64,000 bases of DNA, from contig JBAYJA010000002.1 in NCBI GenBank assembly GCA_041665345.1, forward strand, positions 97,252 to 161,251, given 5' to 3'. Source of the DNA: Patescibacteria group bacterium. Lineage in GTDB: Bacteria; Patescibacteriota; Patescibacteriia; PEXW01. The translations under genes and the position numbers were made by a program. The notes below the pieces were generated by a model, which saw nothing but the letters and a program-made list of their open reading frames with translations, was not told the DNA's origin and made no database searches. Position 1 is the first letter of the stretch; every line of letters starts with the position of its first letter. Positions 1-57,923 of this stretch are shown piece by piece.

Positions 1-229
1 GCGCTTTTTTGTGCAAGTCGCACATGAACAGCGAATCGATCTGCCGGGCGATCGTCGGTTCGAATCTGAGCCGGGTATTCACCTCCCGAGCGGCCAGAGT
101 GTACTTTTCCTGCATGCCGAAGATTACCGCAAACACACTGTCGGCCTTCGCCTGCAAAGACACTTCTGGTGTTTCTATTCGCTTGCTGTAGCCGTTCGAC
201 AACAGGCTGCAAAGAAGAATCGTTGCCAT
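1..229 (-). CDS. Hypothetical protein, 5' portion (gene runs off window start)
   Basis: Reverse-strand ATG at 229 opens a frame with no stop through position 1 (76 codons read: MATILLCSLLSNGYSKRIETPEVSLQAKADSVFAV...). No strong RBS and no recognisable domain. Confidence 0.25.
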   Translation of the reverse strand, partial: MATILLCSLLSNGYSKRIETPEVSLQAKADSVFAVIFGMQEKYTLAAREVNTRLRFEPTIARQIDSLFMCDLHKKA

Positions 230-405
230 CGTGAGAATAAACCAAATGGGCGGGCAACTCCTTGCTAGCGTTGTGGATTTGGGTGACTCTACTTTCATGT
301 ATCCTCCTAAAGTTTCTGTGTTTCTTCCTCAACCTCAACTCATTCAGTATGAACGAATTGAGGAAAGGAGGCGAGCAAACGAAAGGTCTGCTCGCCCCAA
401 AAAAG

Positions 406-1782
406 CTACGATTTACTAAAACCAAAAAGGACGAAGGCGATAGTTAAACAACCAATGTACAGGAGGTAACTTTTTCGCCGTTGCTGGTAGTCTAATGCTC
501 GCCAATCGTATTCGCTCGCACGTTCCTTACGGAGTTTGAATTCCGTAAGCATGAGCGACCAAAAGTATACCAACAGCAAGAAGAAAAATCCAGTCTTGAA
601 AATGAAATTCACGACCCCGCCAAAACCAAAAACAAAAATTCCGAGACGGATAACGAATTCTTTTCGAGCCACGCGTGGCGTACTCTGCAGAAGTTTCCGA
701 ATAAATCGTCCTCCATCCAAAAACCCAAGCGGGATAAGGTTGATGAGTATGATCCAGCCATTGAGCAGCAGAATAATCTGAAACTCGCTGACCGTGAATT
801 GCTGGAGGAGAGTAAGCGCGCAGGATATTCCAACGAAAACGAACTGACCGTACACGCCGGCGAGGAAGATGTGCATTTGCTCGTACCAAGGAAGTTCTTC
901 TACTTGCGCTTCAATTTTCTTTGAGAAGATTACACCACCGATGAGTGGCGTGAAGACCATTAGACAGTACATACGGTGCCGCGCCATTGCAAGCCAATGT
1001 CCCATTTCATGGACCAGGAGAATGACAAAGAGCACCGCCGCTGCAAACGAAGCATTTTCAAACGGGAGTAAGTAACTTCGCATTGCATAAATACCAAACC
1101 AGGTTACTACGGCAGACCCAATAGCTAGCACGGGGTAGCCAATTTTCCTCGCGATCGCTCCTTTACCACGGCCCCTTAGCTGTTCAACAATTTTTTGGAT
1201 TGGATCCTCATCCATTACCCAGAAATAGTAGAGCAGGCCTAGCCAGCCATGGGCAATCCCAAATGCAATGAGATTTGGTTCATGTTGGTAGAGCAGGGAG
1301 AAGATGAATCCCAGAACAACCGTCGCCGGCATGAGCCAGCGGTTCGGGACATGTAGCAGCATAAATGCAATCGCTGTCACAATAGCGATGGGGATTGGCG
1401 ACCATCCTAAGCTAGTCATCTTCATGTTTAGGTAGCCCAGAATGAGAAACTGCTGCGCAAACCCGAAGAGCGGGTAGAGCAGAGCGCTTATGGTCATGTG
1501 GCTATTCCATTTAAGTGTTCTCGGGGTGCGGAGTGCTGCGAAGAGCAGCATAATAATAACCCCGACAACCATTAGCAGGATTACCGGTCGGATCCCAGCA
1601 AACCAGTCATCCGTACGGATGCCAAGCTGTGGCCAGGAAAGTCCGGAGGCTACTTGACTATAGCCGAACCAACCTACGACCAGGACGAGTATTCCCACTT
1701 TGACCACGATTTTTTCCTTCAGTGCTGAAGGAAGGCATGCGTAGACCAGCAGACCCACAAAAACGACGATCAACTCGATCAC
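406..1782 (-). CDS. M50 / site-2-protease-like membrane zinc metalloprotease
   Basis: 458-aa polytopic membrane protein with HEMGHWLAMARH (HExxH inside a hydrophobic stretch) and the downstream NLIPLGFLDGGRF (LDG) motif typical of the M50 family. GTG start at 1782 preceded by GAGGT. The leader hairpin module lies upstream (1783-1917). Confidence 0.55.
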   Translation of the reverse strand: MIELIVVFVGLLVYACLPSALKEKIVVKVGILVLVVGWFGYSQVASGLSWPQLGIRTDDWFAGIRPVILLMVVGVIIMLLFAALRTPRTLKWNSHMTISALLYPLFGFAQQFLILGYLNMKMTSLGWSPIPIAIVTAIAFMLLHVPNRWLMPATVVLGFIFSLLYQHEPNLIAFGIAHGWLGLLYYFWVMDEDPIQKIVEQLRGRGKGAIARKIGYPVLAIGSAVVTWFGIYAMRSYLLPFENASFAAAVLFVILLVHEMGHWLAMARHRMYCLMVFTPLIGGVIFSKKIEAQVEELPWYEQMHIFLAGVYGQFVFVGISCALTLLQQFTVSEFQIILLLNGWIILINLIPLGFLDGGRFIRKLLQSTPRVARKEFVIRLGIFVFGFGGVVNFIFKTGFFFLLLVYFWSLMLTEFKLRKERASEYDWRALDYQQRRKSYLLYIGCLTIAFVLFGFSKS

Positions 1783-1917
1783 TTTCTACCTCACTTTGTT
1801 TGTGTTTATTCTCCTTTCCACAGCACAAGATTGTTCTGCGTTGGAAAGGAGAGACAGGTCAGAAATATTCCAACCTGTCATCTTTGAAAGAGCGAAGCGA
1901 GTGTAATTGTCCCGCGT

Positions 1918-3402
1918 TTACTGCTGTTTTGTGATGCGGATTAGTCGGCGTGTTATATAGTAGTACACCTGCCGGCCGGTTCCACGAACGACAATGGAAA
2001 GCAGATACTTTCCGGTTTGCAGTTTTTTGGGTAACGTGATTTTCAGCTGTAGCGTTACATCCATTTGTGTGGCGGTGCGTTTTTCCCGCAGTAAGGTTTT
2101 GGCTTTCACCCCGGTGGGTTCGTCCTTTCCTTGCTCCATCACCGCCGGCATTGTCTGTTGCCACATCCCGCTTGGGTAGGGCTGGTTCAGGCTGTCCGCA
2201 ACCACGTAGGGTTGGCCAGTGATGATTGAACCTGGTGTGGTATTGGAAACGTCTGGCAGGCGTAGCAACGTTGCTCTTACCTCAAAAGTTCCTGTGTCAG
2301 GGAGCTTTACCTCAGCGTAGAGTGGTAAAATCGTACCAGGCGTAAACCAGGCTTCGGGGTTGTTGTACAGATTGGTACTGTCTCGGACAATGCCCGGCAG
2401 TACGTTGCCACCCATAGCGCTGCTTGACTGCAGGATGAGCACGTCGCTCAGGTGGTTTTTGACTGGAATGAGAATATCAAGCCAGAGGTTACCCACATTG
2501 AGGCTATGCCCAGCCACTGTAAGTCGTGCGTGGTAGTGGCCCGGTGGAATGTCCGTCAGCCGCAAGCACCCCATTGCTCGGATCAAGTGGCGATCCTGGC
2601 GCTGCGTTGCCTGAAGAAGGCCACGCAACATTTGGAGATTTGCGGTTGTACTGTCTGCACATATTTCATTTGCTTGCAGACTGTCGAAGAGCTGAACGCG
2701 CATGGTGAGCGTGCCAGCTTCCAGAGTGAGACCAGTGAACTGATTCCCCGGAACCCAGACCGTGAACCACGCCTCCGTACTTCCATCTGGCGACGGAAAT
2801 CTGGAAACTTGGACAAACGGCCACATTGGATACGCTGTGGGAAATCCTTCATCCATTGGAATGATTCTGGTTGGGTAGTGTTCGCCAGCTTTTGACTGAC
2901 AAGCAATCTCCAACCCTTGGCGCATTGTGGCTGTTGACCGCCAGATGTAAGTCCAGATTGAGCAGGTGTCATGACCGTTGGCACAAGTGCCAGGAACGAT
3001 GAGGACATTGCTCGGTAGTCCATTGATGATAAATAGTGCCCAACGCACGTCAGGCTCAACTGCATCAATGGACGTACCAAAGTAGTTGCTCTGCGCTGCT
3101 CCTTTGCAGGCGGCAAGAGTCTGCTGGACTTCCTGCCAACGCTCAGGGTGGTCTGCTGCCCACGCGTCAACACGTTCTTGGAAGTGCCGGAGGTCTGGCA
3201 TTTTTACCAAAACCTTCTTTACAAACTTCGCATCAAGAATTTGGAAGAGTGTATACATCTCTCTGACGTATGCATCTTGTATCGAATCCTGTACTGCAAA
3301 GCTTTTCACGCCAAACTTTTGTAATGGATGAAATTGCTGTGCTTGGCAAACATGCGTCATGCCAAGAATAAGCAAAGCCATGCCAAGGCATTTCGCTACC
3401 AT
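1918..3402 (-). CDS. Secreted hypothetical protein (494 aa)
   Basis: N-terminal signal peptide MVAKCLGMALLILGMTHVCQAQQ. RBS AAGGAGG 6 nt before the ATG. The conserved two-hairpin leader module lies upstream (3403-3545). Confidence 0.55.
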   Translation of the reverse strand: MVAKCLGMALLILGMTHVCQAQQFHPLQKFGVKSFAVQDSIQDAYVREMYTLFQILDAKFVKKVLVKMPDLRHFQERVDAWAADHPERWQEVQQTLAACKGAAQSNYFGTSIDAVEPDVRWALFIINGLPSNVLIVPGTCANGHDTCSIWTYIWRSTATMRQGLEIACQSKAGEHYPTRIIPMDEGFPTAYPMWPFVQVSRFPSPDGSTEAWFTVWVPGNQFTGLTLEAGTLTMRVQLFDSLQANEICADSTTANLQMLRGLLQATQRQDRHLIRAMGCLRLTDIPPGHYHARLTVAGHSLNVGNLWLDILIPVKNHLSDVLILQSSSAMGGNVLPGIVRDSTNLYNNPEAWFTPGTILPLYAEVKLPDTGTFEVRATLLRLPDVSNTTPGSIITGQPYVVADSLNQPYPSGMWQQTMPAVMEQGKDEPTGVKAKTLLREKRTATQMDVTLQLKITLPKKLQTGKYLLSIVVRGTGRQVYYYITRRLIRITKQQ

Positions 3403-3545
3403 CGTAGCCTCCTTTTGTGTTTTTGTTCTTTTTCAAAACATAGAGTTACCTTCTATGCTTTGAAAAAGAGGCGAGTGCTGGGATGGACCAGACACTCGTC
3501 CTCGAAGAGCGAATTTTTGTGCTGCGCACCTTTTTGAAGACTGAC

Positions 3546-3995
3546 CTATTCTAGATCATTCAGGATAACGAAAATTTTTCCTCTTTCGTCAATTCTGATT
3601 TCATCCATGGCCGGGTCATCATCCAGGTTTGCTTGCGCTCCCGCGACAAAAGTTTCGCCATTGTCTTTCGACGAAATGCAGAACATGTACGGGCTGTCGT
3701 TTGGGATCTGTACTTCTTGTGTTGGCTCGGATCCTGAACGGGGCTCCAGAGCAAGTGTGGGGATGCTACTATCGGCGCAAACGGTTGCAAAATCAGAACC
3801 GTAGTAGTAACCATGCTGTGTCTTGAAATCTTCTTGCGCCTTATATATTTGCATAAGGCACGCTTTGGCTTCTCTCTGCGGTGTGTGAACAATTATTGGA
3901 ATGATCAAGGTTGCTAAGATGCCGATGATGACAACGACGATCATGAGTTCGATGAGGGTGAACCCACCCTGGTTTTTGGTAATGTGATTGCTCAC
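3546..3995 (-). CDS. Type IV pilin / pseudopilin with prepilin N-terminal methylation motif
   Basis: Short leader ending in G, then FTLIELMIVVVIIGILA (Phe+1 and Glu+5 of class III signal peptides). GTG start with AAAGGAG RBS. Immediately downstream of signal peptidase I on the same strand. Confidence 0.75.
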   Translation of the reverse strand: MSNHITKNQGGFTLIELMIVVVIIGILATLIIPIIVHTPQREAKACLMQIYKAQEDFKTQHGYYYGSDFATVCADSSIPTLALEPRSGSEPTQEVQIPNDSPYMFCISSKDNGETFVAGAQANLDDDPAMDEIRIDERGKIFVILNDLE

Positions 3996-4042
3996 GCAAT
4001 CTCCTTTCGATTTTGGGTTATTGGTTTTGAATGACGTTAATA

Positions 4043-4666
4043 CTACAGGCCGCAGAAAATTCGTTCTGCATGGAGCCCGTTATTCCAGCTCCAGTACGTG
4101 CAGACTGCGAGGCCGACAATTTGGTCATTGGGAATTGCACCCAAGTATCGGCTGTCGAAGGAATCGTCACGGTTGTCGCCCATCACAAAAAAGTGATCAT
4201 TGGGTACGACGTAGGGACCAAAGAAGTCCCGAGGGGAATTTTGCTTGGGGTAAGTCTTGGTGTCCCCATGCACTGCCTGCGGAGGCAGCGGGATAAAGAC
4301 GTTATTGACGAATAGGTCTTTATTTCGTACTTCCACCGTGTCCCCAGCAAGGGCGACGCAGCGTTTCACAAAGTCCGTGTTGCGTTCCGGCACGTGGAAG
4401 ACCACAATGTCATCGACTGCTAATGTACCCAGCTTGTAAACAATGATAAAGTCACCGGTTTGCAAGGTTGGGGTCATTGAGTCGCTGCTGATTCGAGACG
4501 CTTGCGCGCAGTACACTCGACTAAGTGTCGCAACCACAACTCCAATTACCAGCCAAAGGCAAACGGGTTTCCACCAATTCTGTACAAATTGGAGGAATTT
4601 TGTGGTTTTGATTCTCGCTCGACCGCTTTCATATGGAGCAGTCCCTCGGGTTATTTTTTTTTCCAT
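4043..4666 (-). CDS. lepB: Signal peptidase I
   Basis: Catalytic-Ser box SDSMTPTL, box D KRCVALAGDTV and box E GDNRDDSFDSRY. N-terminal TM anchor. GGAGGT RBS 6 nt before the ATG. Confidence 0.8.
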   Translation of the reverse strand: MEKKITRGTAPYESGRARIKTTKFLQFVQNWWKPVCLWLVIGVVVATLSRVYCAQASRISSDSMTPTLQTGDFIIVYKLGTLAVDDIVVFHVPERNTDFVKRCVALAGDTVEVRNKDLFVNNVFIPLPPQAVHGDTKTYPKQNSPRDFFGPYVVPNDHFFVMGDNRDDSFDSRYLGAIPNDQIVGLAVCTYWSWNNGLHAERIFCGL

Positions 4667-4777
4667 TTTCCAACCTCCATTTTTTCATTTTTTTCTTTTT
4701 CTCAAACCAGGAATGCTCATGGGTTGGGAAAAGGGGAGGAAACACTTAGGTTTCCTCCAGAAGTGCGCTCTGCTTTC

Positions 4778-4906
4778 TTACTTGCTCACCCGGCAAGCAT
4801 GAAAAAGCGGTGCGAGCACAGCACCTGGCAGCGTTGCCGGTAGGCAGCCGACTACCAAAATTCCGGCGAAAAGGTACATGACGAAGTTGCTGAAAAATTT
4901 CAACAT
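4778..4906 (-). CDS. Small hydrophobic ORF (42 aa), not in the ORF track
   Basis: ATG at 4906 preceded by GGAGGAG. Reads MLKFFSNFVMYLFAGILVVGCLPATLPGAVLAPLFHACRVSK, stop TAA at 4778-4780. It sits behind a complete copy of the hairpin leader module (4926-5001), like its neighbours. Confidence 0.3.
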   Translation of the reverse strand: MLKFFSNFVMYLFAGILVVGCLPATLPGAVLAPLFHACRVSK

Positions 4907-5008
4907 TAGCTCCTCCTGATTGATGTTTTTTCTCTTTCCTCAGCCCACAGTATGGGCTAAGGAAAGAGGTAGACTTCGGGTGAAGCTGTCTACCAAAGCT
5001 TACTGAAA

Positions 5009-5269
5009 TTACCAACGATCCATTTTTGGGATCGGGACGTACGGGATGCACCCTGCGGTGGAAAGTTGGTACTTCCCGTCCTGCAGAATGCAGGATGAGC
5101 GAAAGCCACCAGAGGCTTCGTTGAGAACGACAACGTGAAGGCCTGATTTTGTAGTATTGCGCAGTTCAAAGATGAAATGCGGAATAGTAATTTTTTCTCC
5201 AATGCGCACTGGTTTGCCGTCACATTCGACTTTGCCGGATTTCACCGTAATGAACTTTACTCTGTCCAT
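5009..5269 (-). CDS. Hypothetical protein (86 aa)
   Basis: ATG with GGAGG RBS. The leader module lies upstream (5270-5392). No recognisable domain. Confidence 0.45.
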   Translation of the reverse strand: MDRVKFITVKSGKVECDGKPVRIGEKITIPHFIFELRNTTKSGLHVVVLNEASGGFRSSCILQDGKYQLSTAGCIPYVPIPKMDRW

Positions 5270-5392
5270 GTCTAACCTCCGATTTGTGTTTTTTTCTCTT
5301 CCTCAATCCTCGAATTTACTCGAATGCTGGGGAAGAGAGGCAGATGGTTAGTCTGCCTCTGGAAAATTCTAAATGAGCATTATGACCATTCA

Positions 5393-5968
5393 TTACACAA
5401 TGGCCGGTGACAGTTCCTTTCCGACTTCCGGGGCATCGTCTTGAGGACTGCTATCCACCAGAAGTGAGATACTTCTGCCAGCAAACAGCGCTACTGCGCC
5501 AAACCCAATGATTATGAGGAGCATGTTTAATTCCATTGGAAACATATTGAAGAATAGGTCCGAGGCTGTTTCAATGAAACACGCCCAATGAGCTACTCCG
5601 ATGATGCTGCAGTAGAAAATTGCAAAACCAATTATCCGCTGAAGTTCTTTACTGTTGATTTTGAACTTCCTGGCCGTCAGACCACATGCAAGCAGTCCTA
5701 CGGTCATGGCCAAAAACTGCCAAACCGTCGATGTGTAACTTTCCGTACGATCATGCGCGCGTAGAAAGTAGTCGCCGTTCGGTGCCTGATAGACTTGGTC
5801 GATCTGGTGGCGAAGACCTAGCACGCGGATTAAGCTCAATTGTTCAGTTTGCATGCCTGGAAAGTGCTGAATCTTGAACGTTTCATTCTCAGCCGGAAAT
5901 ACCATATAAAACATGGTAATCAGGCTGAATGCAAATACGATTGCAAGGGTGGTCATGAAGATTTTCAT
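5393..5968 (-). CDS. Polytopic membrane protein (191 aa)
   Basis: At least 4 hydrophobic helices. AAAGGA RBS. Leader module 6001-6076, nearly identical to the one at 4926-5001. Confidence 0.5.
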   Translation of the reverse strand: MKIFMTTLAIVFAFSLITMFYMVFPAENETFKIQHFPGMQTEQLSLIRVLGLRHQIDQVYQAPNGDYFLRAHDRTESYTSTVWQFLAMTVGLLACGLTARKFKINSKELQRIIGFAIFYCSIIGVAHWACFIETASDLFFNMFPMELNMLLIIIGFGAVALFAGRSISLLVDSSPQDDAPEVGKELSPAIV

Positions 5969-6155
5969 TTTTCTGTCCTTTCAGATATGTATTTTATTCG
6001 TTTTTTCTCTTTCCTCAGCCCACAGCATGAGCTAAGGAAAGAGGTAGACTTCGGGTGAAGCTGTCTACCAAAGCTTGTAATGTGCAAATTGGGTTTTAGT
6101 CCCCTCTGTCACCGAAAGCGTAGCAAAGTTTGTTTCATTTTCGCCACGACAGTTG

Positions 6156-6560
6156 CTAAATGGTTCTTTGCGGTTGCTCGTCAAGCGCTGGCCAGGGAAA
6201 TCCGCCAAGAGTATAAAATTTGGCGATGACGAAAGGTCTTGAGGTCCCTCGGTCGATGAGGTTCCCAGTCTCGATTGACGTATGATAATCGTAGTACGTT
6301 TCTTCGTACACCAGGGAATCGACGAAAAGCGTGTCGGGCTTTCTCTGCTCAAAGTGGTAATCAATAGGGACCCAGCTCACGGTAAAGGGTCTCGGGGGCT
6401 CGTATGCCTTGCCGGTACTGCGATCGACCAATACATCACACACGGTGATCGAATGCTGTTCGACCTTCATTCTGGGGTAGAGGTATCCCTGATCCCAGGC
6501 ATACCAAGTGGTAAGGGCAACCATTACCACCACGATAATAATGTTTACGACGTTTCGCAT
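6156..6560 (-). CDS. Membrane-anchored hypothetical protein, paralog of 7152-7787
   Basis: N-terminal TM then WYAWDQGYLYPR, shared with the 7152 gene. Leader module upstream (6561-6665). Confidence 0.5.
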   Translation of the reverse strand: MRNVVNIIIVVVMVALTTWYAWDQGYLYPRMKVEQHSITVCDVLVDRSTGKAYEPPRPFTVSWVPIDYHFEQRKPDTLFVDSLVYEETYYDYHTSIETGNLIDRGTSRPFVIAKFYTLGGFPWPALDEQPQRTI

Positions 6561-6665
6561 TTTTTATCCTTTCAAATAAGTGATTTACGTTTTTTTCTTT
6601 TCCTCACTAATTGATTATTCAAAAGTTGAGGAAAAGAGGCGAGTGAATGGTTCACTCGCCGGTGA

Positions 6666-6953
6666 TCAGCGTAGCCACATAATGGACAGGATCAGACTCA
6701 GCAGCCCGATGATGGTAAAGGTGATGATGAGCCAGATTGGGGTCTTGCCCTGTGGATTTTTGGGTAGTTGCGCCAGGATTTTGTGGCGCAACTTTTGTGC
6801 AGCGGGGAAGTCGATACTCAGAATTCCAATGCCAGCGAGCAGCACCAGAATGCCCGGACCTGGGCCAATGAGCATCACCAGGCCGGCAATGGTGACCACC
6901 AAGCCAGCTAAGATGCGCCCGACTTTCAGCGCTGCAGTCCAGACTCTTTTCAC
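6666..6953 (-). CDS. Small membrane protein (95 aa, 2-3 TM)
   Basis: GTG start at 6953 with GGGAGG RBS. Hydrophobic throughout. Confidence 0.45.
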   Translation of the reverse strand: MKRVWTAALKVGRILAGLVVTIAGLVMLIGPGPGILVLLAGIGILSIDFPAAQKLRHKILAQLPKNPQGKTPIWLIITFTIIGLLSLILSIMWLR

Positions 6954-7151
6954 GGTGCCTCCCTGTTGGTTTTCAGTTTAGGTTCCTTTTCCAGAGCACG
7001 ATACCATATGCTCGTACGCTAGAAAAGAGAGGGGTGGTCCAGCCGGCCACCCCAACAATTATGTTCAAAATGTACTTTGCAAAATTCCTCCTGGTAATTT
7101 TTCGCCACGGAGATCTATGCTCCACGACCAGGCCGACACAGTCCTGGGCGG

Positions 7152-7787
7152 TTACTCGTTATCGTTGCCGTTTGACTCATCCTCTTCCTGTTCACGTCGT
7201 ACTCGGGAGATTGCGATCGGTATGAGTAGTAGAAGTGGAACAGATCCTAGGGCCAGTGACGGGCTGCCAGAGTATTTATACTTCGGATCGAAGAATAAAT
7301 CCCCACCATTTGAGCACCCGACCCCCATAAGTAGGGCACTCTCAAGGGAAGTTGAATCAAACCAACTTTCTTTTGAAAGGCCAGTGGTCATTCCAAGGTC
7401 AGGAGATGAGTTCATAGGTTCAATTTTCCTGCCTAAGCATGTATGGAACTCAGCAATTGTGATCGCCTTGGTACTCCCGTTGACATGCAGGAGGCCATTT
7501 ATGAAATCCGCGTGTTCCGAGTAACCGTAGTCTTTCACATATTGGATTGTATCGACGTACACGGTGTCAGGAGTACCGCTATCAATCCTAAATAATGAAA
7601 TGAACGGAAATGGATCAAGAAAAGGTTGATAGGTTGCCCCGGTGTTCTTTTCGACGATGATGGCACTGTGGTGCCAGAATTTGCCAGTCTCCTCGAATCT
7701 GGGATAAAGGTACCCCTGATCCCAGGCGTACCAAACGCCAAATGTCAGAAAGATGGCAACAAGACCGATGTTGATGATTGTTCTCAC
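7152..7787 (-). CDS. Membrane-anchored hypothetical protein, paralog of 6156-6560 (start corrected)
   Basis: The track ORF begins at 7904 but reads through the intergenic repeat. GTG at 7787 is preceded by GGAGGA, giving VRTIINIGLVAIFLTFGVWYAWDQGYLYPR.., which aligns with the N-terminus of the paralog. Confidence 0.5.
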   Translation of the reverse strand: MRTIINIGLVAIFLTFGVWYAWDQGYLYPRFEETGKFWHHSAIIVEKNTGATYQPFLDPFPFISLFRIDSGTPDTVYVDTIQYVKDYGYSEHADFINGLLHVNGSTKAITIAEFHTCLGRKIEPMNSSPDLGMTTGLSKESWFDSTSLESALLMGVGCSNGGDLFFDPKYKYSGSPSLALGSVPLLLLIPIAISRVRREQEEDESNGNDNE

Positions 7788-8003
7788 TTTTTCCTCCTCA
7801 GGAAGTTTTTGTTTACTAAATGTGTGTTTCTCTTTCCCAATCCACAATCTCTTGCGGCCTAGGAAAGAGAGGGGTGTATGACAGCCAAACCACCCCTCTA
7901 ACAATTATGTTACAAATGTACTTTCAAAATTCCTCCCGGTTGATTTTTCGTATGGAGATCTATGCTCCACGACTGGCACGACACACGCCAGCCGATTATT
8001 CAC

Positions 8004-8282
8004 CTATGCCCGTGTCTGGTCTTGGTGCAAGCGTTTTCCCCACCATTCGAAAAGAAGTCCAAGCAGGATTGCTAATCCTGCAGAAGCAAAGAATGTCTGC
8101 AGAATTTCGACTACGCTGATCCCGGTTCCTTTGTTCGTTGTGAGATCGAGAACAATGCCAATCAGGAGCGCGGTTGTCCCGATGATTTTTTGACTCAGAT
8201 TTGAGACGCTGTATAGTCTCAATATGATGATTGCCAAGAATCCCACTACGAAGCTGAAAGTTAAACTAAATACAGTGGACAT
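8004..8282 (-). CDS. Small membrane protein (92 aa)
   Basis: ATG with AAGGAGGA RBS. 2-3 TM helices. Leader module of the 8357 / 9126 subfamily lies upstream. Confidence 0.45.
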   Translation of the reverse strand: MSTVFSLTFSFVVGFLAIIILRLYSVSNLSQKIIGTTALLIGIVLDLTTNKGTGISVVEILQTFFASAGLAILLGLLFEWWGKRLHQDQTRA

Positions 8283-8434
8283 GTGTCCTCCTTGTGAATA
8301 TTGTGGTTAAATTGTTTTTTCTCAACTGCAAAACAGAATTTTCATTCTGTTCTCTAGTCGAGGGGCAGCATATTAGAAGCTGCCCAACGAAGGTGCGAAA
8401 CTTTAGTCGACGGATAGTTATGAGTTTCTTCGAG

Positions 8435-9058
8435 TCATCTCCTCGGAAGAAGTTCACAATTACCGTCTTGAAATGCTAATACGTTTGTCAAACCCCCAGA
8501 TGGTTTGACCAAGATAGTTCGCTCATCATTTTTGCACGTTGGGTCTGGGACACTGCAACTAAATAATTTAAAATCTTCTGGCCCCTTTGGAAAGGTCGAA
8601 TCTTTGGCCGTTTCTTCATCGAGAATGACGAACAATACGTCCACTTGATCATCATGATTAAATTGTCCATGAATTTCCAGGTCGACGTTTTTCAAAACGT
8701 ATACGTTGCCCTCGGGGCAAAGCAATTTTGCTCCGTAGTAGCTTCTATCAAGAGTGGCGGTATATCCCCAGCATATTTTCTGCGGTAGGCCAATCTGGTA
8801 GAGCTCAGCGGCGCCTCCGAAGGAGATGCTATACATTGTTTGGCGATAAAGGTATTCCCTGGCATATTGCCAAACACTGTCCGGAACGCAGTTCAGCTCA
8901 ACATTCAGCGAGTCAGAAATTTGTTTTAGTTTCTGTTCCAGAATTTTTTCTTCATTCGCGACCACTTGCGCCTGTATCGTCGGCATCAGCGCCAACGAAT
9001 TCACCATGACGAACATGGCGACGAGGATTGCGAAGGTAATCAATCTTTTCATTTTCAC
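8435..9058 (-). CDS. Secreted hypothetical protein (207 aa)
   Basis: Signal peptide MKMKRLITFAILVAMFVMVNSLALMPTIQAQ. AAGGAG RBS. Confidence 0.5.
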   Translation of the reverse strand: MKMKRLITFAILVAMFVMVNSLALMPTIQAQVVANEEKILEQKLKQISDSLNVELNCVPDSVWQYAREYLYRQTMYSISFGGAAELYQIGLPQKICWGYTATLDRSYYGAKLLCPEGNVYVLKNVDLEIHGQFNHDDQVDVLFVILDEETAKDSTFPKGPEDFKLFSCSVPDPTCKNDERTILVKPSGGLTNVLAFQDGNCELLPRR

Positions 9059-9170
9059 TCCTTGTTCTTAGTTTTTATGATTGTTTGTTTCTCGACTTCA
9101 GTCCAGAATCAGTATTCTGCACTCAAGTCGAGGGGCAGCATTTTTTTTAGTGCTGCCCGACGAAAGGACA

Positions 9171-9731
9171 TTAGCCAGCAAGCGCTTGCTGCTGGATATT
9201 CACCGGCACATTGGGCACGGTGAAATAATGGTCGTGCGTAAGGAAAGAGATTCCCCTCACCCAGATTCGTACCGTTCCAGTACCAGGATTGCTGGATAGT
9301 CTTCTTTCGAAGATACCTGTTCCTGTCTGCAGTTCGAAATGGAGAGGCAGACTTTCGTTCTCAGATGCGTCAAGCACCATGTCGAACGAGGCGCTCTCCA
9401 TCCCGACTTCCATGAGGTAGTCGGTGATTTCTTGTTCGAGACCCTTAATGTATTGACGTTGTTTTTCGTGGGTCTCTTCCCGTTGCTTTCGGAACTCCTC
9501 GGCTTTGTCAGGGCCACCTATGACTCTGCCGAGCCAGTAGCCGCTAAAGACCGATTCGCCTGGAACCTTTTTTGTGATTTCAACCAGGTAAAAACCCGGT
9601 TGAGTAAAGGTCACCAAGTGTTTCGCATTTCGATCTGCGAACACCAGCGGACCTCTCATTTCAGGGTGGCCAATAACTCTGCCGTCCCATTCATCCTTGT
9701 GGAAATCCACGAGAATAATCTCAGTACTCAT
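9171..9731 (-). CDS. Hypothetical cytoplasmic protein (start trimmed to the RBS-supported ATG)
   Basis: GGAGGA RBS precedes the ATG at 9731 (MSTEIILVDFH...). The ORF-track start at 9770 lacks an RBS. Confidence 0.45.
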   Translation of the reverse strand: MSTEIILVDFHKDEWDGRVIGHPEMRGPLVFADRNAKHLVTFTQPGFYLVEITKKVPGESVFSGYWLGRVIGGPDKAEEFRKQREETHEKQRQYIKGLEQEITDYLMEVGMESASFDMVLDASENESLPLHFELQTGTGIFERRLSSNPGTGTVRIWVRGISFLTHDHYFTVPNVPVNIQQQALAG

Positions 9732-9981
9732 ACTTCCTCCGAATAATTTGTTGTTTCTTTCTCTTCTCACAGCGAGCCAGGTCTACGCAATCCCGCACAA
9801 CCCTGGAGAGAGGGAAGGAAGCGGCATGACGCAGAACCTGACTCAGTGTGAGGAGAGAAGGGAAGCCGTAAGCTGTAGAGCTGTAAGCCGTAAGGTCTGC
9901 AAGATGTACAGTATGCTTTACAGTAAAGGAGTTCCTTCTTCAGTAAAAAAGCGTTTTTATACTAGAGAAGAAGGGAGATGG

Positions 9982-10254
9982 TTAGATCTCCCGAGTTTTC
10001 CTGTAGTAAAAGAACTGGCCAAGGATGATCCCCGACAGCACTATTCCGATTGTATCCGGAATCAAAATGTAGAAATCGTTGATAGTAAGTGCATGCCAAG
10101 CTCTGCAGCTATACACGCACACAGTGAGAATGGCCAAGAAAAAGGCCGTTCCGCACCGGCGCTCTTTGCGATTTTTTAGGATCTGCATGGTAAGCCCAAT
10201 TAAGACCATCAGAATCGCAAAGGTCAGCGTTGCATATCCAGATATCTTTTCCAT
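9982..10254 (-). CDS. Small membrane protein (90 aa)
   Basis: GAGGA RBS. 3 TM helices. A TTCGTA-repeat tract lies immediately upstream (10271-10304). Confidence 0.45.
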   Translation of the reverse strand: MEKISGYATLTFAILMVLIGLTMQILKNRKERRCGTAFFLAILTVCVYSCRAWHALTINDFYILIPDTIGIVLSGIILGQFFYYRKTREI

Positions 10255-10410
10255 TGTGTATTCCTCTTTTTTCGTATATTCGTACTGATTCGTAATTCGT
10301 AAATTTTGTTTCTCTTCTTCAGGGCAAAAGTATGTTTCGCGCTAGAGAAGAGTAGGGAGGAGACGAGTTGAACGTCTGCCTCCCACTTTCAGAAATGTGC
10401 TTAGAAGACT

Positions 10411-11196
10411 TTAGAAGCTGAAGCCTACTTCAGCAAAGTCTACGTTACCATCTGGGGTAAAAGCCCGTAAGGCCTTTACCCGGATGTGTTTCGTGGCGTC
10501 GAGTCTGACGCCGAGCGCGCGGTTATGGACCTCGCCGTCGTTGACGGCGTAGAACAACCGGAAGGACTTATAGTCCAAGTTCACAATCCCAGACAACTGG
10601 TCCTCGCGACCACCGTTGTACCAGGTCTTGCCACCGTAGGCATTGACCTGGAAGGTGTGCCGAATGTTTACCTTTGGCGTTGTGAACCCCGCCGTTTTGG
10701 CAAAGTCTTCTTGCCACAGTAACTCAATACCGTGGAAGGTTAGAGCCGCTGAGAACTCGTTTGTCCGTACAGCGTACAGACTAAGTGCACCACGGTTATA
10801 CCCAACACCGATACCGTTGCCGATAAAGGTGTACGAGTTATGAACGGGGAACCATAACTTCCCGTTCAATTCATTTGGGGACGGCGTAATCTGGCCGGCT
10901 GCGGTGAACGTCGCACCGACGTAGAGAGTTGCCTCCCCATCGAAGATACTCTTCGGTACGCAGCCCTGAGCCGCGATTACCGTATTCGAAGCGAGGTCGT
11001 ATTGAAACTCGCCGCGGATACTGTCAACGTGGAGGGTCAGTTTGGAAACCGCCCACCGATTCGTGAACGACTTCACAGAATCATGCGGTGCCTGGGTCAT
11101 GATATACCCACCAAACTTGACGCTGTCCACTTGCGCGAACAGCGAAGTTGCCATCACAAGGACGGCAATGATCGAAATGATAACTGACTTAAACAT
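10411..11196 (-). CDS. Secreted beta-rich protein, possible outer-membrane beta-barrel
   Basis: Signal peptide MFKSVIISIIAVLVMATSLFAQV. Alternating hydrophobic pattern, and the C-terminus ...DFAEVGFSF ends in Phe (OMP-like signature). AAGGAGA RBS. Confidence 0.45.
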   Translation of the reverse strand: MFKSVIISIIAVLVMATSLFAQVDSVKFGGYIMTQAPHDSVKSFTNRWAVSKLTLHVDSIRGEFQYDLASNTVIAAQGCVPKSIFDGEATLYVGATFTAAGQITPSPNELNGKLWFPVHNSYTFIGNGIGVGYNRGALSLYAVRTNEFSAALTFHGIELLWQEDFAKTAGFTTPKVNIRHTFQVNAYGGKTWYNGGREDQLSGIVNLDYKSFRLFYAVNDGEVHNRALGVRLDATKHIRVKALRAFTPDGNVDFAEVGFSF

Positions 11197-11330
11197 TTAA
11201 TTCTCCTTGCCCAAAGCCCTGGGCGTTTTATGTCATTTCTTAAATTATCGTTCTCAAGATTCTAACCAGTGAATTACTTCATGGGTTAGAGAGTGAGGGG
11301 GAGGCAGAATGGAACTGGCTCCCCGTAATT

Positions 11331-11681
11331 TTACAATTTTAGCCTCCTTTGCAGAATTTCTAACCCCGTCTTTTGGTTTTTCACCAAAATGATCGGCAGT
11401 TGATTCTCCCGAATGATCTGAGAAATGCTTTCGCTGAGCCCGGCGATGATGAGAAGATTGCTACTCCCCAATATTTCCCGGCAACTCTGCAGGGAATTAA
11501 TCCCCTCAGTCGTCATTTTGCCCACACCCTCCATTGAGAGGACATAGGATACCCTCGTTTTCTTTCTGACCTCTTGAACTAGGAGTGCGCCTCCTAGTTT
11601 ATCGAGCGACCCTCGGCAGGTGATGATCCTGATATCTTCATCGCCAAAATTTTTCAATGAGAGCATGCAATCTCCTTGCAT
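11331..11681 (-). CDS. STAS-domain-like protein (116 aa)
   Basis: SpoIIAA-like size and pattern. AAGGAG RBS. Paired with the downstream STAS gene. Confidence 0.4.
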   Translation of the reverse strand: MQGDCMLSLKNFGDEDIRIITCRGSLDKLGGALLVQEVRKKTRVSYVLSMEGVGKMTTEGINSLQSCREILGSSNLLIIAGLSESISQIIRENQLPIILVKNQKTGLEILQRRLKL

Positions 11682-11783
11682 TTGTTCTTGATTATTTTCG
11701 TTCTCACTGTTTCAACCCATGAACCATTTCACGAGTTGGAGGATGAGGGGGAGCCAGAGTAGTACTGACTCCCCGAAATATCG

Positions 11784-12128
11784 TTACGGTAATGCCGCTA
11801 TTCTCTCAAGGGCCGCTTTCTCGTCTTGAGCGATCTCGAAGATAGCGGACAGCTGAGTGATCTCCATCATCTCTTGGATATACGACGCCAGATCAGTGAG
11901 AACAAAGCGTCTGTTTGCCAGCCGGCAAAGCTTGAGGCAGGTGACCAAGCAGCCAAGGCCCGCGGAGGTGATAAAATCAACTTCCTTGAGGCAAAGGAGG
12001 ATTGGACCCGTTCCTTGCTTTACGATTTCCTCGACCTTCCTTTGCAGTATTTCTCTGCTTAAGATGTCGATTCGACCTTTGCAATGAAGAATGGTCGCCG
12101 AACCTTCGTTTCGGATTGTGATTTCCAT
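11784..12128 (-). CDS. STAS domain anti-sigma-factor antagonist-like protein
   Basis: VDFITSAGLGCLV motif typical of SpoIIAA / RsbV STAS domains. 114 aa. Confidence 0.55.
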   Translation of the reverse strand: MEITIRNEGSATILHCKGRIDILSREILQRKVEEIVKQGTGPILLCLKEVDFITSAGLGCLVTCLKLCRLANRRFVLTDLASYIQEMMEITQLSAIFEIAQDEKAALERIAALP

Positions 12129-12149
12129 GTTTTTTCTCCAAACTTTGGA

Positions 12150-12419
12150 TTAAATAGTTCTGTACCAACTTGCCCCATTCATTAGTTGGACATAGCGAAC
12201 CGGACAATGTTTGCAAGTCCGGGTATGGTATTTCGTTTTTGGTTCAGATGAACCAGTTGGCTGTTTCGTGAACCCGTCAATAATTTTCGCTTCCTCAATT
12301 CGATAGGTCCATACGGCCCAGTGCAGGCGACCTCGGAAGTGAATATTCGGGTTGAGGACGCAGATGAATACGGCGACTAGGAAAGCCACAAATAGTGTCA
12401 CGGTGATAAATTCGAACAT
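12150..12419 (-). CDS. Small membrane protein (89 aa) with CxxC
   Basis: N-terminal TM. C-terminal TCKHCP. AAGGAGA RBS. Confidence 0.4.
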   Translation of the reverse strand: MFEFITVTLFVAFLVAVFICVLNPNIHFRGRLHWAVWTYRIEEAKIIDGFTKQPTGSSEPKTKYHTRTCKHCPVRYVQLMNGASWYRTI

Positions 12420-12557
12420 TTTTTCTCCTTGCCCATTTCTGAGTTTTTTGCTTGTTTACTTTTTTCTCACTTCTCAGCACACTGGAATGTCCTAAGAAGT
12501 GAGAGGCAGCCGGCGGTTAATGCGACGGCTGCCTTTCTCTTAAGGTTCGTTTTTTTG

Positions 12558-13061
12558 CTAGCCAATAGCTTTGTGGAAACGTTTCCAATATTCGTCGTCC
12601 ACACAGGGTTCGCCATCGTCGGTCATCGGAACTTCCAGACTAAGGGTCCAGAGCCCGTTGTATTTTTTGGTAGCGCGGATAACGCTACCGGTTTCACGAG
12701 ATTCGAAGAGGATACTCTTCACCGTCGCATTGGTGAAGACGTAGATCCCATCGGATTCGACGCTTGTTCCGTCGGGTCGTTGGACGAATTCAGTCCCGAA
12801 TAATTCCGGACACTTCGTTAAGTTGTCTTCCATCGTCCATTCTCTTGAGCCGTTCCAATGCGGCGTATTCCAGTACGCCTCCATGAGAACAAACGGGGTT
12901 GTTACCAACCCTTTGTCCTTGATAAATTGCGCAAACCTTTCTGCACAATCTTCAGGGATGACGGCAATGCCGCGTACAGCCACAGCAACAACCTCAAAAT
13001 CAACCTCATAAATTCTCTTTATGATACTGGTTGACACTTGAATCGAACTTTCCTGTAACAT
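12558..13061 (-). CDS. Hypothetical protein (start trimmed to M12)
   Basis: GGAGAAT RBS 5 nt before the ATG at 13061 (MLQESSIQ...). No recognisable domain. Confidence 0.45.
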   Translation of the reverse strand: MLQESSIQVSTSIIKRIYEVDFEVVAVAVRGIAVIPEDCAERFAQFIKDKGLVTTPFVLMEAYWNTPHWNGSREWTMEDNLTKCPELFGTEFVQRPDGTSVESDGIYVFTNATVKSILFESRETGSVIRATKKYNGLWTLSLEVPMTDDGEPCVDDEYWKRFHKAIG

Positions 13062-13180
13062 TTTATTCTCCTTTGCCTTCTCAGGCTTGCGCAAATATTG
13101 TTTTTCTCACTTCTCAGTACACCGTTATATGTCCTAAGAAGTGAGAGGCAGCCGGCGAAAAGCGTCGGCTGCCAAGTAAC

Positions 13181-13357
13181 CTACGTCCTGGTCTGATTGC
13201 TAATTTTTAGCACCAGAATCGTGGTGATGATTACCATCACCACACTCAGGATCGAGAAGGCCAGTGTGGCCTTCATGTTCTGCGCCATCATGGCGCAGAA
13301 CGCGAGAATCAGGGTAATAGAGTGGCAGACCAATATTCTGAAGATTTTTTCTAACAT
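13181..13357 (-). CDS. Small membrane protein (58 aa; start corrected)
   Basis: The track ORF start at 13441 lies inside a leader block shared with the non-coding 11716-11745. AAGGAGA RBS precedes the ATG at 13357 (MLEKIFRILVCHSITLILAF...). Confidence 0.4.
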   Translation of the reverse strand: MLEKIFRILVCHSITLILAFCAMMAQNMKATLAFSILSVVMVIITTILVLKISNQTRT

Positions 13358-13496
13358 TTTTTTCTCCTTGCCCATAGTCTTGGGCGGTATGTTTGTGTTT
13401 ATTGTTTCAATCTCATAGATCCAACCTATGAACCATTTCACGAGTTGGAGGATGAGAGGCAGCCGGCGAAAAGCGACGGCTGCCCTCGAAATAGAG

Positions 13497-13703
13497 CTAG
13501 CGACTTTTACTGATGATTACCTCAGCGGGGACGACGCCGAGAAGAAATTCTGCGAACACTGCGAAGAAGCAGTAGACCGCGATTTCCAACCAGATCAACC
13601 CACCACCGGAAATGCCGATCATTCCGGTGATTGCCATGATCATTGCAGTGGCTACCATGACGGTAAACCATACTGTAATGAAATCCCACTTCATTTTTCT
13701 CAT
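13497..13703 (-). CDS. Small membrane protein (68 aa; start trimmed)
   Basis: AAAGGA RBS before the ATG at 13703 (MRKMKWDFITVWFTVMV...). Most upstream gene of the co-directional array. Confidence 0.4.
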   Translation of the reverse strand: MRKMKWDFITVWFTVMVATAMIMAITGMIGISGGGLIWLEIAVYCFFAVFAEFLLGVVPAEVIISKSR

Positions 13704-14680
13704 TGTTTCCTTTCGTTGGATTTCCTCACTGTCACCCGCACCAGTCCCTCCGGACTCATGCGGGCGGACAGTGTGCCCGAACGACAAACTGTTCAGGACA
13801 CTAAATAAAACAGACCCTCTTCTTTTTATAGGAGAGAGTCTGTTATTGGGTTGTAATCATAAGAATAGATAAATGAATAGTGAAATAATTGCAAATTATC
13901 CAGTCGCTTGTCGCAGCTTTCGCCGCGTTGTTTACACCAACCCACTGGTAGCGGGTAAGGTGCTCTCTCCGTCGACCCCCCAAGCGAAGAGGAGACGACT
14001 ATGGCACTATTCGGTTTTCAACGTTCGGACAGGCCGCTGAAATAACCAGTTCTAGCGTAACGGGGGAGTATATACTGGATTGCCAATCCTGTCAATACCT
14101 AAAAAGGCTAAGGTTAGCCAAAAGGGCTTAGATTAGCCAAAAATACTTATGGTAGATTGTTACGTCCCGCCACCGAGGCGGGATCCCGCCTTCCTTTCCT
14201 CAGAAGTAGAAAGTGGCGGGAAATTACGAAATGAAAGGAGTTACGCCCCGCGGAGCGGGGTCCCGCTTCGCGGGAAATATACGAATTACGAATGGGGATA
14301 CGGATGAATGGAAGGGATGGCAGGACGGGTTTGATTCTTGGATAATGACTGGTTCAAGTAATACAAGGGTTTGCCTGGTAAGGACTACCTCCCCCTACCC
14401 CCTCCTTCGAAAGGAGGGGAGGGTGTTTTTGGTTATGTACAGACCAAGGTGTATTTGTACGTTTCCTCCCCTTTCGAAGGGGAGGACAGGTGGGGTAACC
14501 CTTACCGGGTGAAAGTATGAATATGAACCCAGCTTTCTCCTTACGCCATACTTCTGCTATGGGGTATTGACAAGCTCCAAATACCATGCTACCTTTAGTT
14601 GTTTTTCAGGTAGTGCCACGCAAGGTGCAAGGAGCAACAAGCGTGGTGTTGGGTGATTAACTTTCCAAGGAGGAATTTGC

Positions 14681-57913: not shown

Positions 57914-57923
57914 GGCAGTATTT

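Follow-up and report, generated by a model that had tools for sequence, protein, structure and literature searches.

A reiterated two-hairpin module, a candidate intercistronic RNA, in a hypervariable operon of a Patescibacteria clade

A 64-kb stretch of DNA (the window) from a Patescibacteria group bacterium carries at its left end a long array of mostly small genes, nearly all of which are preceded by the same two-hairpin element, here called the module. The original prediction, made from the sequence of the window, had described a 13-kb co-directional array of about 20 genes, each with a conserved two-hairpin leader, and had likened its layout to that of an integron. On our best reading of the results, the module is an intercistronic RNA of two hairpins that is repeated along, and tied to, a hypervariable operon under the control of a leader, in a clade of Patescibacteria. 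The DNA examined was the window with 10 kb of its left flank (~74 kb of the 1.07-Mb source contig) and slices of about ±10 kb from related genomes, ~0.6 Mb in all. The loci compared are numbered from L001, which is the source contig fetched past the window edge (ENA ERZ27249449 k141_1145919, a metagenomic record).

All real genes from position 13703 to the window start lie on the minus strand. There are 22 of them in the window, the last cut by its edge, and their starts and stops are those of the gene calls on the source contig. Co-directionality was thus predicted correctly, but the array does not end at 406. It extends 2 kb past the left window edge and totals ~16.5 kb, 25 genes and 21 modules. 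Past g22, L001 carries a module, g23 (FHA), g24 (FHA with a transmembrane (TM) segment), a further module, g25 (64 aa) and a canonical terminator. The products are mostly small membrane or secreted proteins (the small membrane proteins are g1, g2, g4, g11, g13, g15 and g17), with several soluble proteins that belong to no known family. The genes in the window are as follows.

13497-13703, minus strand: g1, 68-aa membrane protein
13181-13357, minus strand: g2, 58-aa membrane protein
12558-13061, minus strand: g3, 167 aa, no Pfam match
12419-12150, minus strand: g4, 89 aa, homolog in the L010 array
12128-11784, minus strand: g5, STAS protein, 114 aa
11331-11666, minus strand: g6, 111 aa, STAS not confirmed
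10411-11196, minus strand: g7, 261 aa, signal peptide, porin-like beta-barrel
9982-10254, minus strand: g8, 90 aa, 3-TM, SemiSWEET-like (MtN3_slv)
9171-9731, minus strand: g9, 186 aa
8435-9052, minus strand: g10, 205 aa, secreted
8004-8282, minus strand: g11, 92-aa membrane protein
7152-7787, minus strand: g12, 211 aa, paralog of g14
6666-6953, minus strand: g13, 95 aa, PGPGW membrane protein
6156-6560, minus strand: g14, 134 aa
5393-5968, minus strand: g15, 191-aa membrane protein
5009-5269, minus strand: g16, 86 aa
4778-4906, minus strand: g17, 42-aa membrane peptide
4666-4043, minus strand: g18, signal peptidase I (LepB), 207 aa
3995-3546, minus strand: g19, type-IV-pilin-like protein, 149 aa
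1918-3402, minus strand: g20, 494 aa, secreted
406-1782, minus strand: g21, 458 aa, fusion of a CPBP (Rce1-like) and an M50 protease
2-298, minus strand: g22, 166 aa, extending past the window edge

Every intergenic region was folded with RNAfold. The same topology of two hairpins was found upstream of 21 of the array's 25 genes, and 19 of these genes are in the window (g1-g4, g6-g8, g10-g18 and g20-g22). As had been predicted, lepB (g18), the M50 protease gene (g21) and the gene of the 494-aa protein (g20) are among them. The three boundaries without a module are three short gaps (21 nt before g5, 47 nt before g19 and a third of ~25 nt).

The first hairpin (HP1) is GC-rich, has 7-12 bp and lies 5-105 nt past the upstream stop codon (median 16.5). 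The predicted GC-rich hairpin was thus found, with wider ranges than the 7-9 bp and 0-30 nt given for it. The second hairpin (HP2) has 13-19 bp, usually in a lower and an upper stem, and abuts HP1 with a 0-nt junction in 18 of 20 modules. Its 5' arm is pyrimidine-rich and opens with (T)CTC, and its 3' arm is purine-rich and closes with GAG(A). The predicted arms TCTCYTTYCC/GGRAARGAGA fit about half of the HP2s, and in the others CTCACTTCTTAG, CTCGACTTGAG or CTCATCCTCCAAC is paired with an arm complementary to it. HP2 is followed by a single-stranded A-rich tail with an AAAC end, and the Shine-Dalgarno sequence (SD) and start codon come 24-57 nt past HP2 (median 35). This tail agrees with the predicted order of A-tract, SD and start codon, except that the g1 module has no A-tract. 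The short conserved edges are the same in all units, namely a CC/YCTC junction (the slash marks the boundary of HP1 and HP2) and a GAGAAAAC tail. The modules in the window are listed below. R2 scores are those of a covariance model described afterwards, and element E is a ~100-nt sequence to which we return.

13730-13801, minus strand: g1 module, z -6.2; divergent sequence, no A-tract; upper HP2 conserved in L007 and L008
13411-13484, minus strand: g2 module, chimeric, with HP1 96% like that of g3 and HP2 85% like that of g6
13105-13173, minus strand: g3 module, z -7.9; R2 28 bits
12465-12533, minus strand: g4 module, z -7.7; R2 34.7 bits; near-copy of the g3 module
11703-11774, minus strand: g6 module, z -5.7
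11253-11324, minus strand: g7 module, z -5.3
10312-10384, minus strand: g8 module, z -6.2; 2-nt junction
9091-9158, minus strand: g10 module, z -10.2
8321-8385, minus strand: g11 module, z -7.5; compensatory and G·U changes versus the g10 module
7898-7829, minus strand: g12 module, preceded by element E
7053-6983, minus strand: g13 module, preceded by element E; HP1 96% identical to HP1 of the L044 LepB module
6596-6660, minus strand: g14 module, z -10.3
6007-6069, minus strand: g15 module, in a 77-nt unit 97% identical to the g17 module
5295-5359, minus strand: g16 module, z -4.6; R2 32.5 bits
4932-4994, minus strand: g17 module, z -7.6
4695-4758, minus strand: g18 module, z -4.1; R2 29.9 bits; 2-nt junction in the minimum free energy (MFE) fold
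3427-3501, minus strand: g20 module, z -9.2
1810-1879, minus strand: g21 module, z -6.8
323-396, minus strand: g22 module, z -9.1
9755-9992, minus strand: atypical region before g9, with a degenerate module, tandem repeats and a long HP2-like hairpin

All 19 window modules fold more stably than dinucleotide shuffles (z -4.1 to -10.3; 0-1 of 200 shuffles equal). Two covariance models, R1 and R2, were then seeded from helix bases and the tail only, in loop-masked rows of equal length, because whole-module MAFFT alignments were not structure-consistent. Modules with a CCCC/CTC junction were shifted by MAFFT and kept out of the seeds, and the models recovered them anyway. R1 and R2 ranked all array modules first, including copies absent from the seeds, and on the sense strand only. 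Together with the folds, this ranking shows that the hairpins are real, as predicted, and not chance palindromes. The best R1 or R2 match in the remaining 50 kb of the window scored 14-16 bits (E > 1), and no significant match outside the arrays was observed in the ~0.6 Mb examined, including the non-array DNA of relatives. A hairpin scanner without the CTC/AAC constraints was of no use (dozens of matches on both strands), and three plus-strand matches of a stricter scanner were coding-region artefacts. The whole window gave no Rfam match at gathering thresholds, with only chance-level scores at the array head (E 0.4-0.9), and searches for tRNA and tmRNA found none. Scans of viral contigs gave nothing for the operator or promoter described below and, for one module type, two weak single matches that were taken as chance. 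No publication describing the two-hairpin module was found in a literature search.

This distribution bears on the idea that the modules are selfish or neutral palindromic repeats that spread locally and are tolerated, in the manner of repetitive extragenic palindromes (REP) and bacterial interspersed mosaic elements (BIME), miniature inverted-repeat transposable elements (MITE), Correia elements or enterobacterial repetitive intergenic consensus (ERIC) sequences. The modules are indeed repeated imperfect palindromes in intergenic DNA, near-identical non-adjacent copies exist (97% for g15/g17), and one assembly breaks within a module. REP/BIME, ERIC and Correia elements are found genome-wide, in both orientations and with similar sequences. 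Like the modules, they are reiterated palindromes co-transcribed in operons, and they can influence flanking mRNA stability and recombine. The modules differ in being confined to one operon type, one orientation and a fixed place relative to the SD, and in being conserved in structure. They always lie between a stop codon and the next SD, and none was found in the other ~57 kb of this genome examined or in the non-array DNA of relatives. Their architecture is kept while the sequences diverge almost completely, and the stems evolve much more slowly than the loops. Neither terminal inverted repeats nor target duplications were observed, and no Y1/RAYT gene was found nearby among the open reading frames (ORFs) scanned. 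Dispersal of the REP/BIME or MITE kind was rejected, with significant matches only in arrays and on the sense strand in the ~74 kb of this genome, and we regard a selfish or neutral repeat as very unlikely.

To see how the array is expressed, we consider the features at its head, which are the following.

14180-14263, minus strand: upstream copy of a direct repeat of ~86 nt
14125-14140 and 14106-14121, minus strand: two operator-like palindromes, TTGGCTAAYCTWAGCC, 10 nt upstream of the -35 hexamer
14067-14095, minus strand: sigma70-type promoter, TTGACA-17-TATACT
13803-14062, minus strand: structured leader RNA of ~255 nt, ending in a canonical intrinsic terminator (hairpin and U-tract, 13842-13803)

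The promoter matches 11 of 12 consensus positions and is the best in 1-14500. Promoter-like sites inside the array are at shuffle level (18 found versus 15.3 ± 3.5 expected), with none credible in the modules. The HP2 3' arm was tried as the -35 element of internal promoters and rejected, being inconsistent across modules. Because the only strong promoter stands at the array head and a canonical terminator (GAGCCCCGATGTATAAGTCGGGGCTTTTTTTGCG in L001) at the far end, the 25 genes appear to form a single operon of ~16.5 kb. TTGGCTAAYCTWAGCC matches twice where 0.14 matches are expected, with no further copies in the window. The pair and its spacing are conserved in L007, L008, L010, L012 and L036, in the layout TTTGGCTAAYCTNAGCC-N10-TTGACA, and the promoter is conserved in relatives as well. 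The pair is probably a transcription-factor operator.

The leader could be aligned in five genomes. RNAalifold gave 57 pairs, 15 of them with compensatory changes, in a ~160-nt multi-helix domain that is closed by a long-range helix and includes a GNRA hairpin. Its counterparts lie at ~9180-9470 in L007, ~3380-3670 in L008, ~8950-9270 in L010 and ~2790-3090 in L036, and in L012, L033 and L037 the same promoter is followed by a different leader. The 5' arm of the terminator, CTCTCTCC, has a complement in an invariant GGAGAGAG near 13965, which is a possible antiterminator. The leader, which has no Rfam match, looks like a riboswitch or attenuator in its modelled fold, and may also be a stand-alone RNA.

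Canonical terminators are found at the leader end and the operon end only. The 8 nt past HP1 are pyrimidine-rich (mean 3.9 U, mixed with C), and a run of four or five U is present in 4 of 21 modules. The prediction that the hairpins lack a U-tract and are not ordinary terminators was thus right for most modules, with those four as exceptions. We rejected HP1 as an intrinsic terminator, since the hairpin is there but a direct U-run is mostly missing. HP1 could instead be a weak or regulated terminator (an attenuator), which would give graded expression or be overcome by processive antitermination set in the leader, with HP2 as a modulator. Its GC-rich stem before a pyrimidine-rich tract (at least 5 U in 8 of 21 modules), its place close behind stop codons and the conserved structured leader with its own terminator ahead of the array all suit this idea. 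However, the U-runs of bona fide terminators in these genomes are 4-7 nt long, and another 8 of the 21 modules have no more than 3 U past HP1 and no run among them. Such an attenuator would leave HP2, the 0-nt junction and the AAAC tail without a role, because termination is decided before the HP2 3' arm has been made. The same modules also occur in L012, L033 and L037, whose leader is unrelated. We consider an attenuator unlikely.

We compared the two strands of the modules for signs of selection. The sense fold was more stable than the antisense fold in 27 of 35 modules (p 0.002), and G·U pairs were more frequent in the sense (73 versus 43, p 0.007; 42 versus 16 in the window alone). Composition does not account for this bias, because that of the arms is symmetric under complementation. 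When six orthologous modules were compared between L007 and L008, changes were seen at 24.6% of unpaired and ~7% of paired positions (odds ratio 4.1, p 8e-6). The changed pairs included eight switches from G-C or A-U to G·U, one compensatory change and two A·C, which are tolerable on the other strand only. Sequence-based alignments of module subfamilies likewise showed compensatory and wobble changes, with freely diverging loops. These results point to selection on the sense-strand RNA fold rather than on a DNA site.

An RNA fold next to the SD could act in translational control. The anti-SD-like 5' arm of HP2 might alternate between the HP2 3' arm and the SD, or the module might be an RNA thermometer. 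By inspection, about half of the HP1 3' arms and HP2 5' arms resemble the 3' end of 16S rRNA (e.g. CGCCUCCUUUCC) and their partners are SD-like, and one L007 module has its SD inside the HP2 3' arm. Yet the SD lies 10-45 nt downstream of HP2 and is unpaired in the MFE folds of all 21 modules, other HP2 families have no anti-SD resemblance, and no alternative pairing is conserved. Translational control of this kind therefore seems highly improbable. Pairing of the HP1 flanks and the tail into a three-way junction, a tRNA-like or a ribozyme-like fold was also inspected and dropped, with no consistent complementarity.

The array has a divergently transcribed neighbour, a C39-like peptidase gene (14958-15779), whose relatives were found only in genomes of Patescibacteria or the Candidate Phyla Radiation (CPR), labelled Kerfeldbacteria, Uhrbacteria, Paceibacter or 'Patescibacteria group'. 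The closest by this peptidase are L007, L008, L010 and L012 (69-77% amino-acid identity), and the whole locus plan is common to them: operator pair, promoter, leader, genes split by HP1-HP2 modules, and canonical terminator. Searching metagenomes with the operator-promoter string gave 12 loci, with modules wherever enough downstream sequence was available (L033, L036, L037 and L041), and the arrays of L044 and L045 were reached through homologs of g7. The architecture is conserved in at least eight related Patescibacteria genomes. No modules were found in the distant CPR loci L013-L031.

Behind the shared flank gene, promoter and leader, the arrays hold ~4 genes (L036), ~5 (L010) and up to 25 here, with largely different content. 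The recurring families are few: the g7 barrel, a g4-like protein, CPBP proteases (homologs of g21 in L010, L036 and L041) and LepB with or without the pilin. This agrees with the cassette-array-like layout that had been proposed. The alternative of a simple operon with identical, non-variable gene order was contradicted by the synteny comparison, in which insertions, deletions and replacements end at modules. The homology of L007 and L008 extends from the promoter as far as the second gene's start codon, after which unrelated genes stand behind the same module, and L007 carries an extra unit of a module and a STAS gene. In L044, the closest relative found (g8 94%, g7 81%; orthologs 31-94% overall), the array consists of g7, g8, a 151-aa gene, lepB, the pilin gene, a 187-aa gene, FHA and g25. 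It is without g9, g11-g17 and g20-g23, keeps only the signal-peptide part of g10 and retains the LepB-pilin pair (g18-g19). The 187-aa gene is a 31% homolog of g9, but it is positioned after the pilin gene. In comparison with L044, the window holds six genes (g12-g17) between one module and lepB.

Some endpoints could be located closely. For the long hairpin before g9, the identity with L044 is 95%, versus 78% for the neighbouring genes. In L044 this hairpin ends in GAGAAAC and joins a g10-type leader directly, and in the window a spacer, an SD, g9 and an HP1-HP2 that again ends in GAGAAAC are intercalated, so that g9 and its module lie exactly between two GAGAAAC tails. The L044 lepB module combines HP1 of the g13 module (96%) with HP2 of the g12 module (81%), and the L044 FHA module combines a g20-like HP1 (78%) with a g22/g23 HP2 (95%). 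HP1 and HP2 types are thus reassorted, as in the chimeric g2 module. Exchange points lie at the HP1/HP2 junction and at the HP2 tail, which suggests that HP1 travels with the upstream gene and HP2, tail and SD with the next. Modules are 89-96% identical where the adjoining coding DNA is 70-78% identical (window versus L044), and the same holds for L045 versus L007. Some breakpoints fall at the start codon and not at the module edge. The relatives are fairly divergent, and breakpoints were resolved to a few nucleotides in two or three cases only. As judged from these alignments, the comparison showed that the modules are conserved joints at which genes have been inserted, deleted, replaced and moved, and cassette-like behaviour of the locus is supported.

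Such behaviour raises the question of whether the modules are DNA recombination sites, analogues of attC that are folded as single strands and recognised by a recombinase. They would then bound true mobile cassettes, in a capture platform without an integrase or with an unknown recombinase, where the same fold also serves as RNA punctuation, gated by the riboswitch-like leader and the operator-controlled promoter. Several observations are in keeping with this: co-directional, promoterless small ORFs behind a single promoter, hypervariable content behind conserved flanks, indel endpoints at module edges (GAGAAAC tail and HP1/HP2 junction), the reassortment of HP1 and HP2, the near-identical modules that flank g3, g22 and g15-g16, the g20 homologs, which occur only outside the clade, and a direct repeat that brackets the operon. 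The two copies of this ~86-nt repeat have the same orientation and are 89.5% identical over 86 nt by blastn. The upstream copy is ~85 nt from the promoter, with CGTAATTCGTA-type short repeats beside it, and the other lies at 13882-13967 in L001, ~430 nt (0.4 kb) past the operon terminator. No tRNA gene was found at either end of the bracketed region.

The signatures of an integron are missing, however. No RYYYAAC...GTTRRRY pair 40-130 nt apart was found on either strand in 1-14000 (2.6 expected), in line with the prediction that attC cores are absent, and the AAAC of the module, 3' of the hairpin, has no GTT partner. Pfam scans of 44 window ORFs (not every small ORF) gave no integrase or recombinase domain, and the annotation of the 10 kb past the left edge includes none of these families. 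The array neighbours are housekeeping genes (hrcA-grpE-dnaK-dnaJ, cysS, dus and corA). Sequence-specific binding would need arms far less variable than these. In integrons it is the bottom strand that recombines, and the G·U bias and stem conservation of the modules fit a coding-strand RNA. Breakpoints at start codons lie off the module edge, and homologous recombination between similar modules explains all the observations too. What the array shares with integrons is co-directional promoterless units behind one promoter, variable in presence and order among relatives, with an imperfect palindrome each, structure kept over sequence, and unit edges at a short conserved motif by the palindrome. 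It differs in that no intI was found, there are no R''/R' cores, each unit has two hairpins and not one bulged stem, and selection appears to act on a coding-strand RNA. Integron membership was rejected on the missing cores, the lack of a recombinase in the DNA scanned and the RNA-type sequence evolution, and with it any link to integrons. A recombinase-recognised site or capture platform is in our view quite unlikely.

Another known system resembles the locus at the evolutionary level. In the hyperplastic regions of T4-type phages, recombination between stem-loop cassettes called PeSLs (promoter early stem-loops) leads to insertion, deletion and replacement of gene units, and each PeSL has a strong sigma70 promoter and an effective terminator (PMC2839356, PMC4122927). 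As in PeSLs, the modules are short conserved stem-loop cassettes between small, mostly ORFan genes of a hypervariable region, and they are exchange points for ORF insertion, deletion and replacement. A PeSL-type cassette promoter was rejected, as no sigma70 promoter lies inside the modules. The module is promoterless, lacks a U-run terminator, has two abutting hairpins and lies in one transcription unit of a bacterial chromosome.

At the RNA level, other systems offer the likeness. Rhodobacter puf, E. coli malEFG-REP and Clostridium cip-cel are cases of SRPS (selective processing and stabilization of RNA), in which intercistronic hairpins of a long operon cap processed segments and set the stoichiometry of cistrons. 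The array shares with them stable hairpins in the intercistronic regions of a single transcription unit, and the function proposed here is similar by analogy. The hairpins of the known cases are individual and unrelated, unlike the one design found here at 21 of 25 gene starts and conserved across genomes. The early RNase III sites of phage T7 are single hairpins with an internal loop, and their cleavage leaves a stabilising 3' hairpin. The T7 sites are like the module in being a structured element between nearly all genes of a long transcript and unlike it in having one hairpin instead of two, and cleavage here would be by analogy only. Intercistronic stem-loops in operons of the SRPS type have been surveyed (PMC10667835). 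TIGR (tandem interspaced guide RNA) arrays (PMC12045711) were considered and set aside, as they are unrelated in layout. By analogy, the closest likeness of the module is thus to SRPS and the RNase III punctuation of T7 where RNA is concerned, and to PeSLs and attC in its evolution.

Taken together, we favour, with a probability of about 0.5, the reading that the module is a clade-specific intercistronic RNA punctuation element in one long operon and doubles as a recombination joint. From its anatomy and by analogy we infer a role in mRNA processing, stability or insulation. HP1 would be the 3' stem-loop of the upstream cistron, and HP2 with tail and SD the 5' stem-loop and leader of the downstream one. 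The original term 'leader module' would then suit HP2, tail and SD but not HP1, which would act as an upstream 3' element. A cut at the helix junction or close beside it, or one in the A-rich tail, could yield hairpin-capped segments. Upstream segments would be capped against 3' exonucleases, and downstream ones would open with a hairpin or a ribosome-bound leader. The module may also shield each translation start from upstream sequence and so give a context-independent start. Such a role in processing or insulation would explain why every persisting unit has a module. Recombination between modules could shuffle whole gene units, because the units carry the same short conserved edges and similar stems. 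This exchange is probably homologous or microhomology-mediated, which by analogy would be the simplest mechanism.

Several points weigh against this reading. Fair alignments contain few compensatory changes (4 of 50 pairs), and the covariation of the seed alignment (97.9% paired, 12 of 12 pairs covarying) is circular, as the arms came from each sequence's own fold. The modules are related by duplication, and counts over them are not independent. The operon specificity refers to ~74 kb of the 1.07-Mb contig and the ~±10-kb slices of relatives. Processing, stabilisation and insulation are drawn from anatomy and analogy only, and a pure stability role leaves the pyrimidine/purine asymmetry of HP2 and the AAAC tail unexplained.

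CPR/Patescibacteria are abundant, mostly uncultured epibionts with genomes of ~1 Mb. The locus would offer them a compact route to envelope and surface diversity, with one regulated promoter and leader in front of interchangeable gene units. If the modules insulate or stabilise cistrons, they would be a natural plug-and-play operon part for RNA and synthetic biology. If they are also recombination joints, they could explain the rapid turnover of membrane and secreted proteins in the clade. If true, this would add to integrons and phage PeSLs a second, independent case in which regulatory hairpins organise gene shuffling. The module and the leader are both outside Rfam, and each could be defined as a new RNA motif.

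Further sequence elements accompany the modules. The region before g9 contains a degenerate module (9992-9927, minus strand) whose HP1 overlaps the g8 stop, short tandem repeats CTTACGG/CTTACAG at ~9905-9870, and then the long HP2-like hairpin (9862-9755, minus strand), which has the arms TTCTCTCCTCACA.../...TGTGAGAAGAGAA and the end GAGAAGAGAAAGAAAC. Element E (~100 nt) sits immediately upstream of both the g12 and the g13 module (~7996-7901 and ~7151-7056, minus strand) and, at 2075-2170 of L044, immediately upstream of the lepB module there. It contains an SD-like GGAGGAATTTTG and two small hairpins, among them the palindrome GGAGCATAGATCTCC. L012 has a related motif, GCATAGATCTC. Some modules are followed by a third small hairpin that abuts the SD (e.g. 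at the starts of g2, g4 and g7: 13357, 12419 and 11196). Its consensus ...GGGC/AAGGAGAA... (boundary marked by the slash) is conserved across genomes upstream of g7 orthologs and also occurs in L008, L010 and L012.

Near-copies of whole modules flank g3, g22 and g15-g16. An independent assembly (L002, a contig of Logan SRR6484324) is 100% identical to the source, starts at L001 6798 and breaks inside the g17 module. This shows that the near-identical g15 and g17 modules fragment short-read assemblies, and that such arrays are likely under-represented in metagenome-assembled genomes (MAGs).

Among the array proteins, the original prediction had named two STAS proteins and a putative outer-membrane barrel. 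STAS was found in g5 (PF01740, E 1.5e-14) but not in g6, which has no Pfam match and no BLAST similarity to g5. The barrel is backed, with moderate confidence, by the AlphaFold model of g7, an all-beta barrel (pLDDT 67, pTM 0.62), and the protein ends in a C-terminal Phe. Its best PDB matches are general porins: the R. blastica porin (TM-score 0.61-0.63), OmpU and OmpT. Patescibacteria are generally held to be without an outer membrane, and a porin-like g7 was unexpected in them; the family recurs in related arrays. An OmpA-domain protein is encoded just past the array in L045. The best conserved array gene is g8, with a 94% identical ortholog in L044, and its MtN3_slv/SemiSWEET score of 24.3 bits is barely over the Pfam gathering score of 23.7.

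In a set of 5.8 billion proteins, g21 had no homolog besides itself, and g20 had five only, of 40-43% identity, one of them from a Zixibacteria MAG. These homologs sit in unrelated contexts, at times as tandem paralogs, and no modules or synteny were found around them in Zixibacteria or the others. As all five are in unrelated contexts, this suggests that g20 was acquired into the array by horizontal transfer.

Elsewhere in the window, 55358-60857 encodes an 851-aa TraG/VirD4-like coupling ATPase and, behind it, a Big_7/dockerin protein of 977 aa. Dockerin modules are unusual in CPR, and a second dockerin/FG-GAP protein is encoded close by, at 63232-63954.

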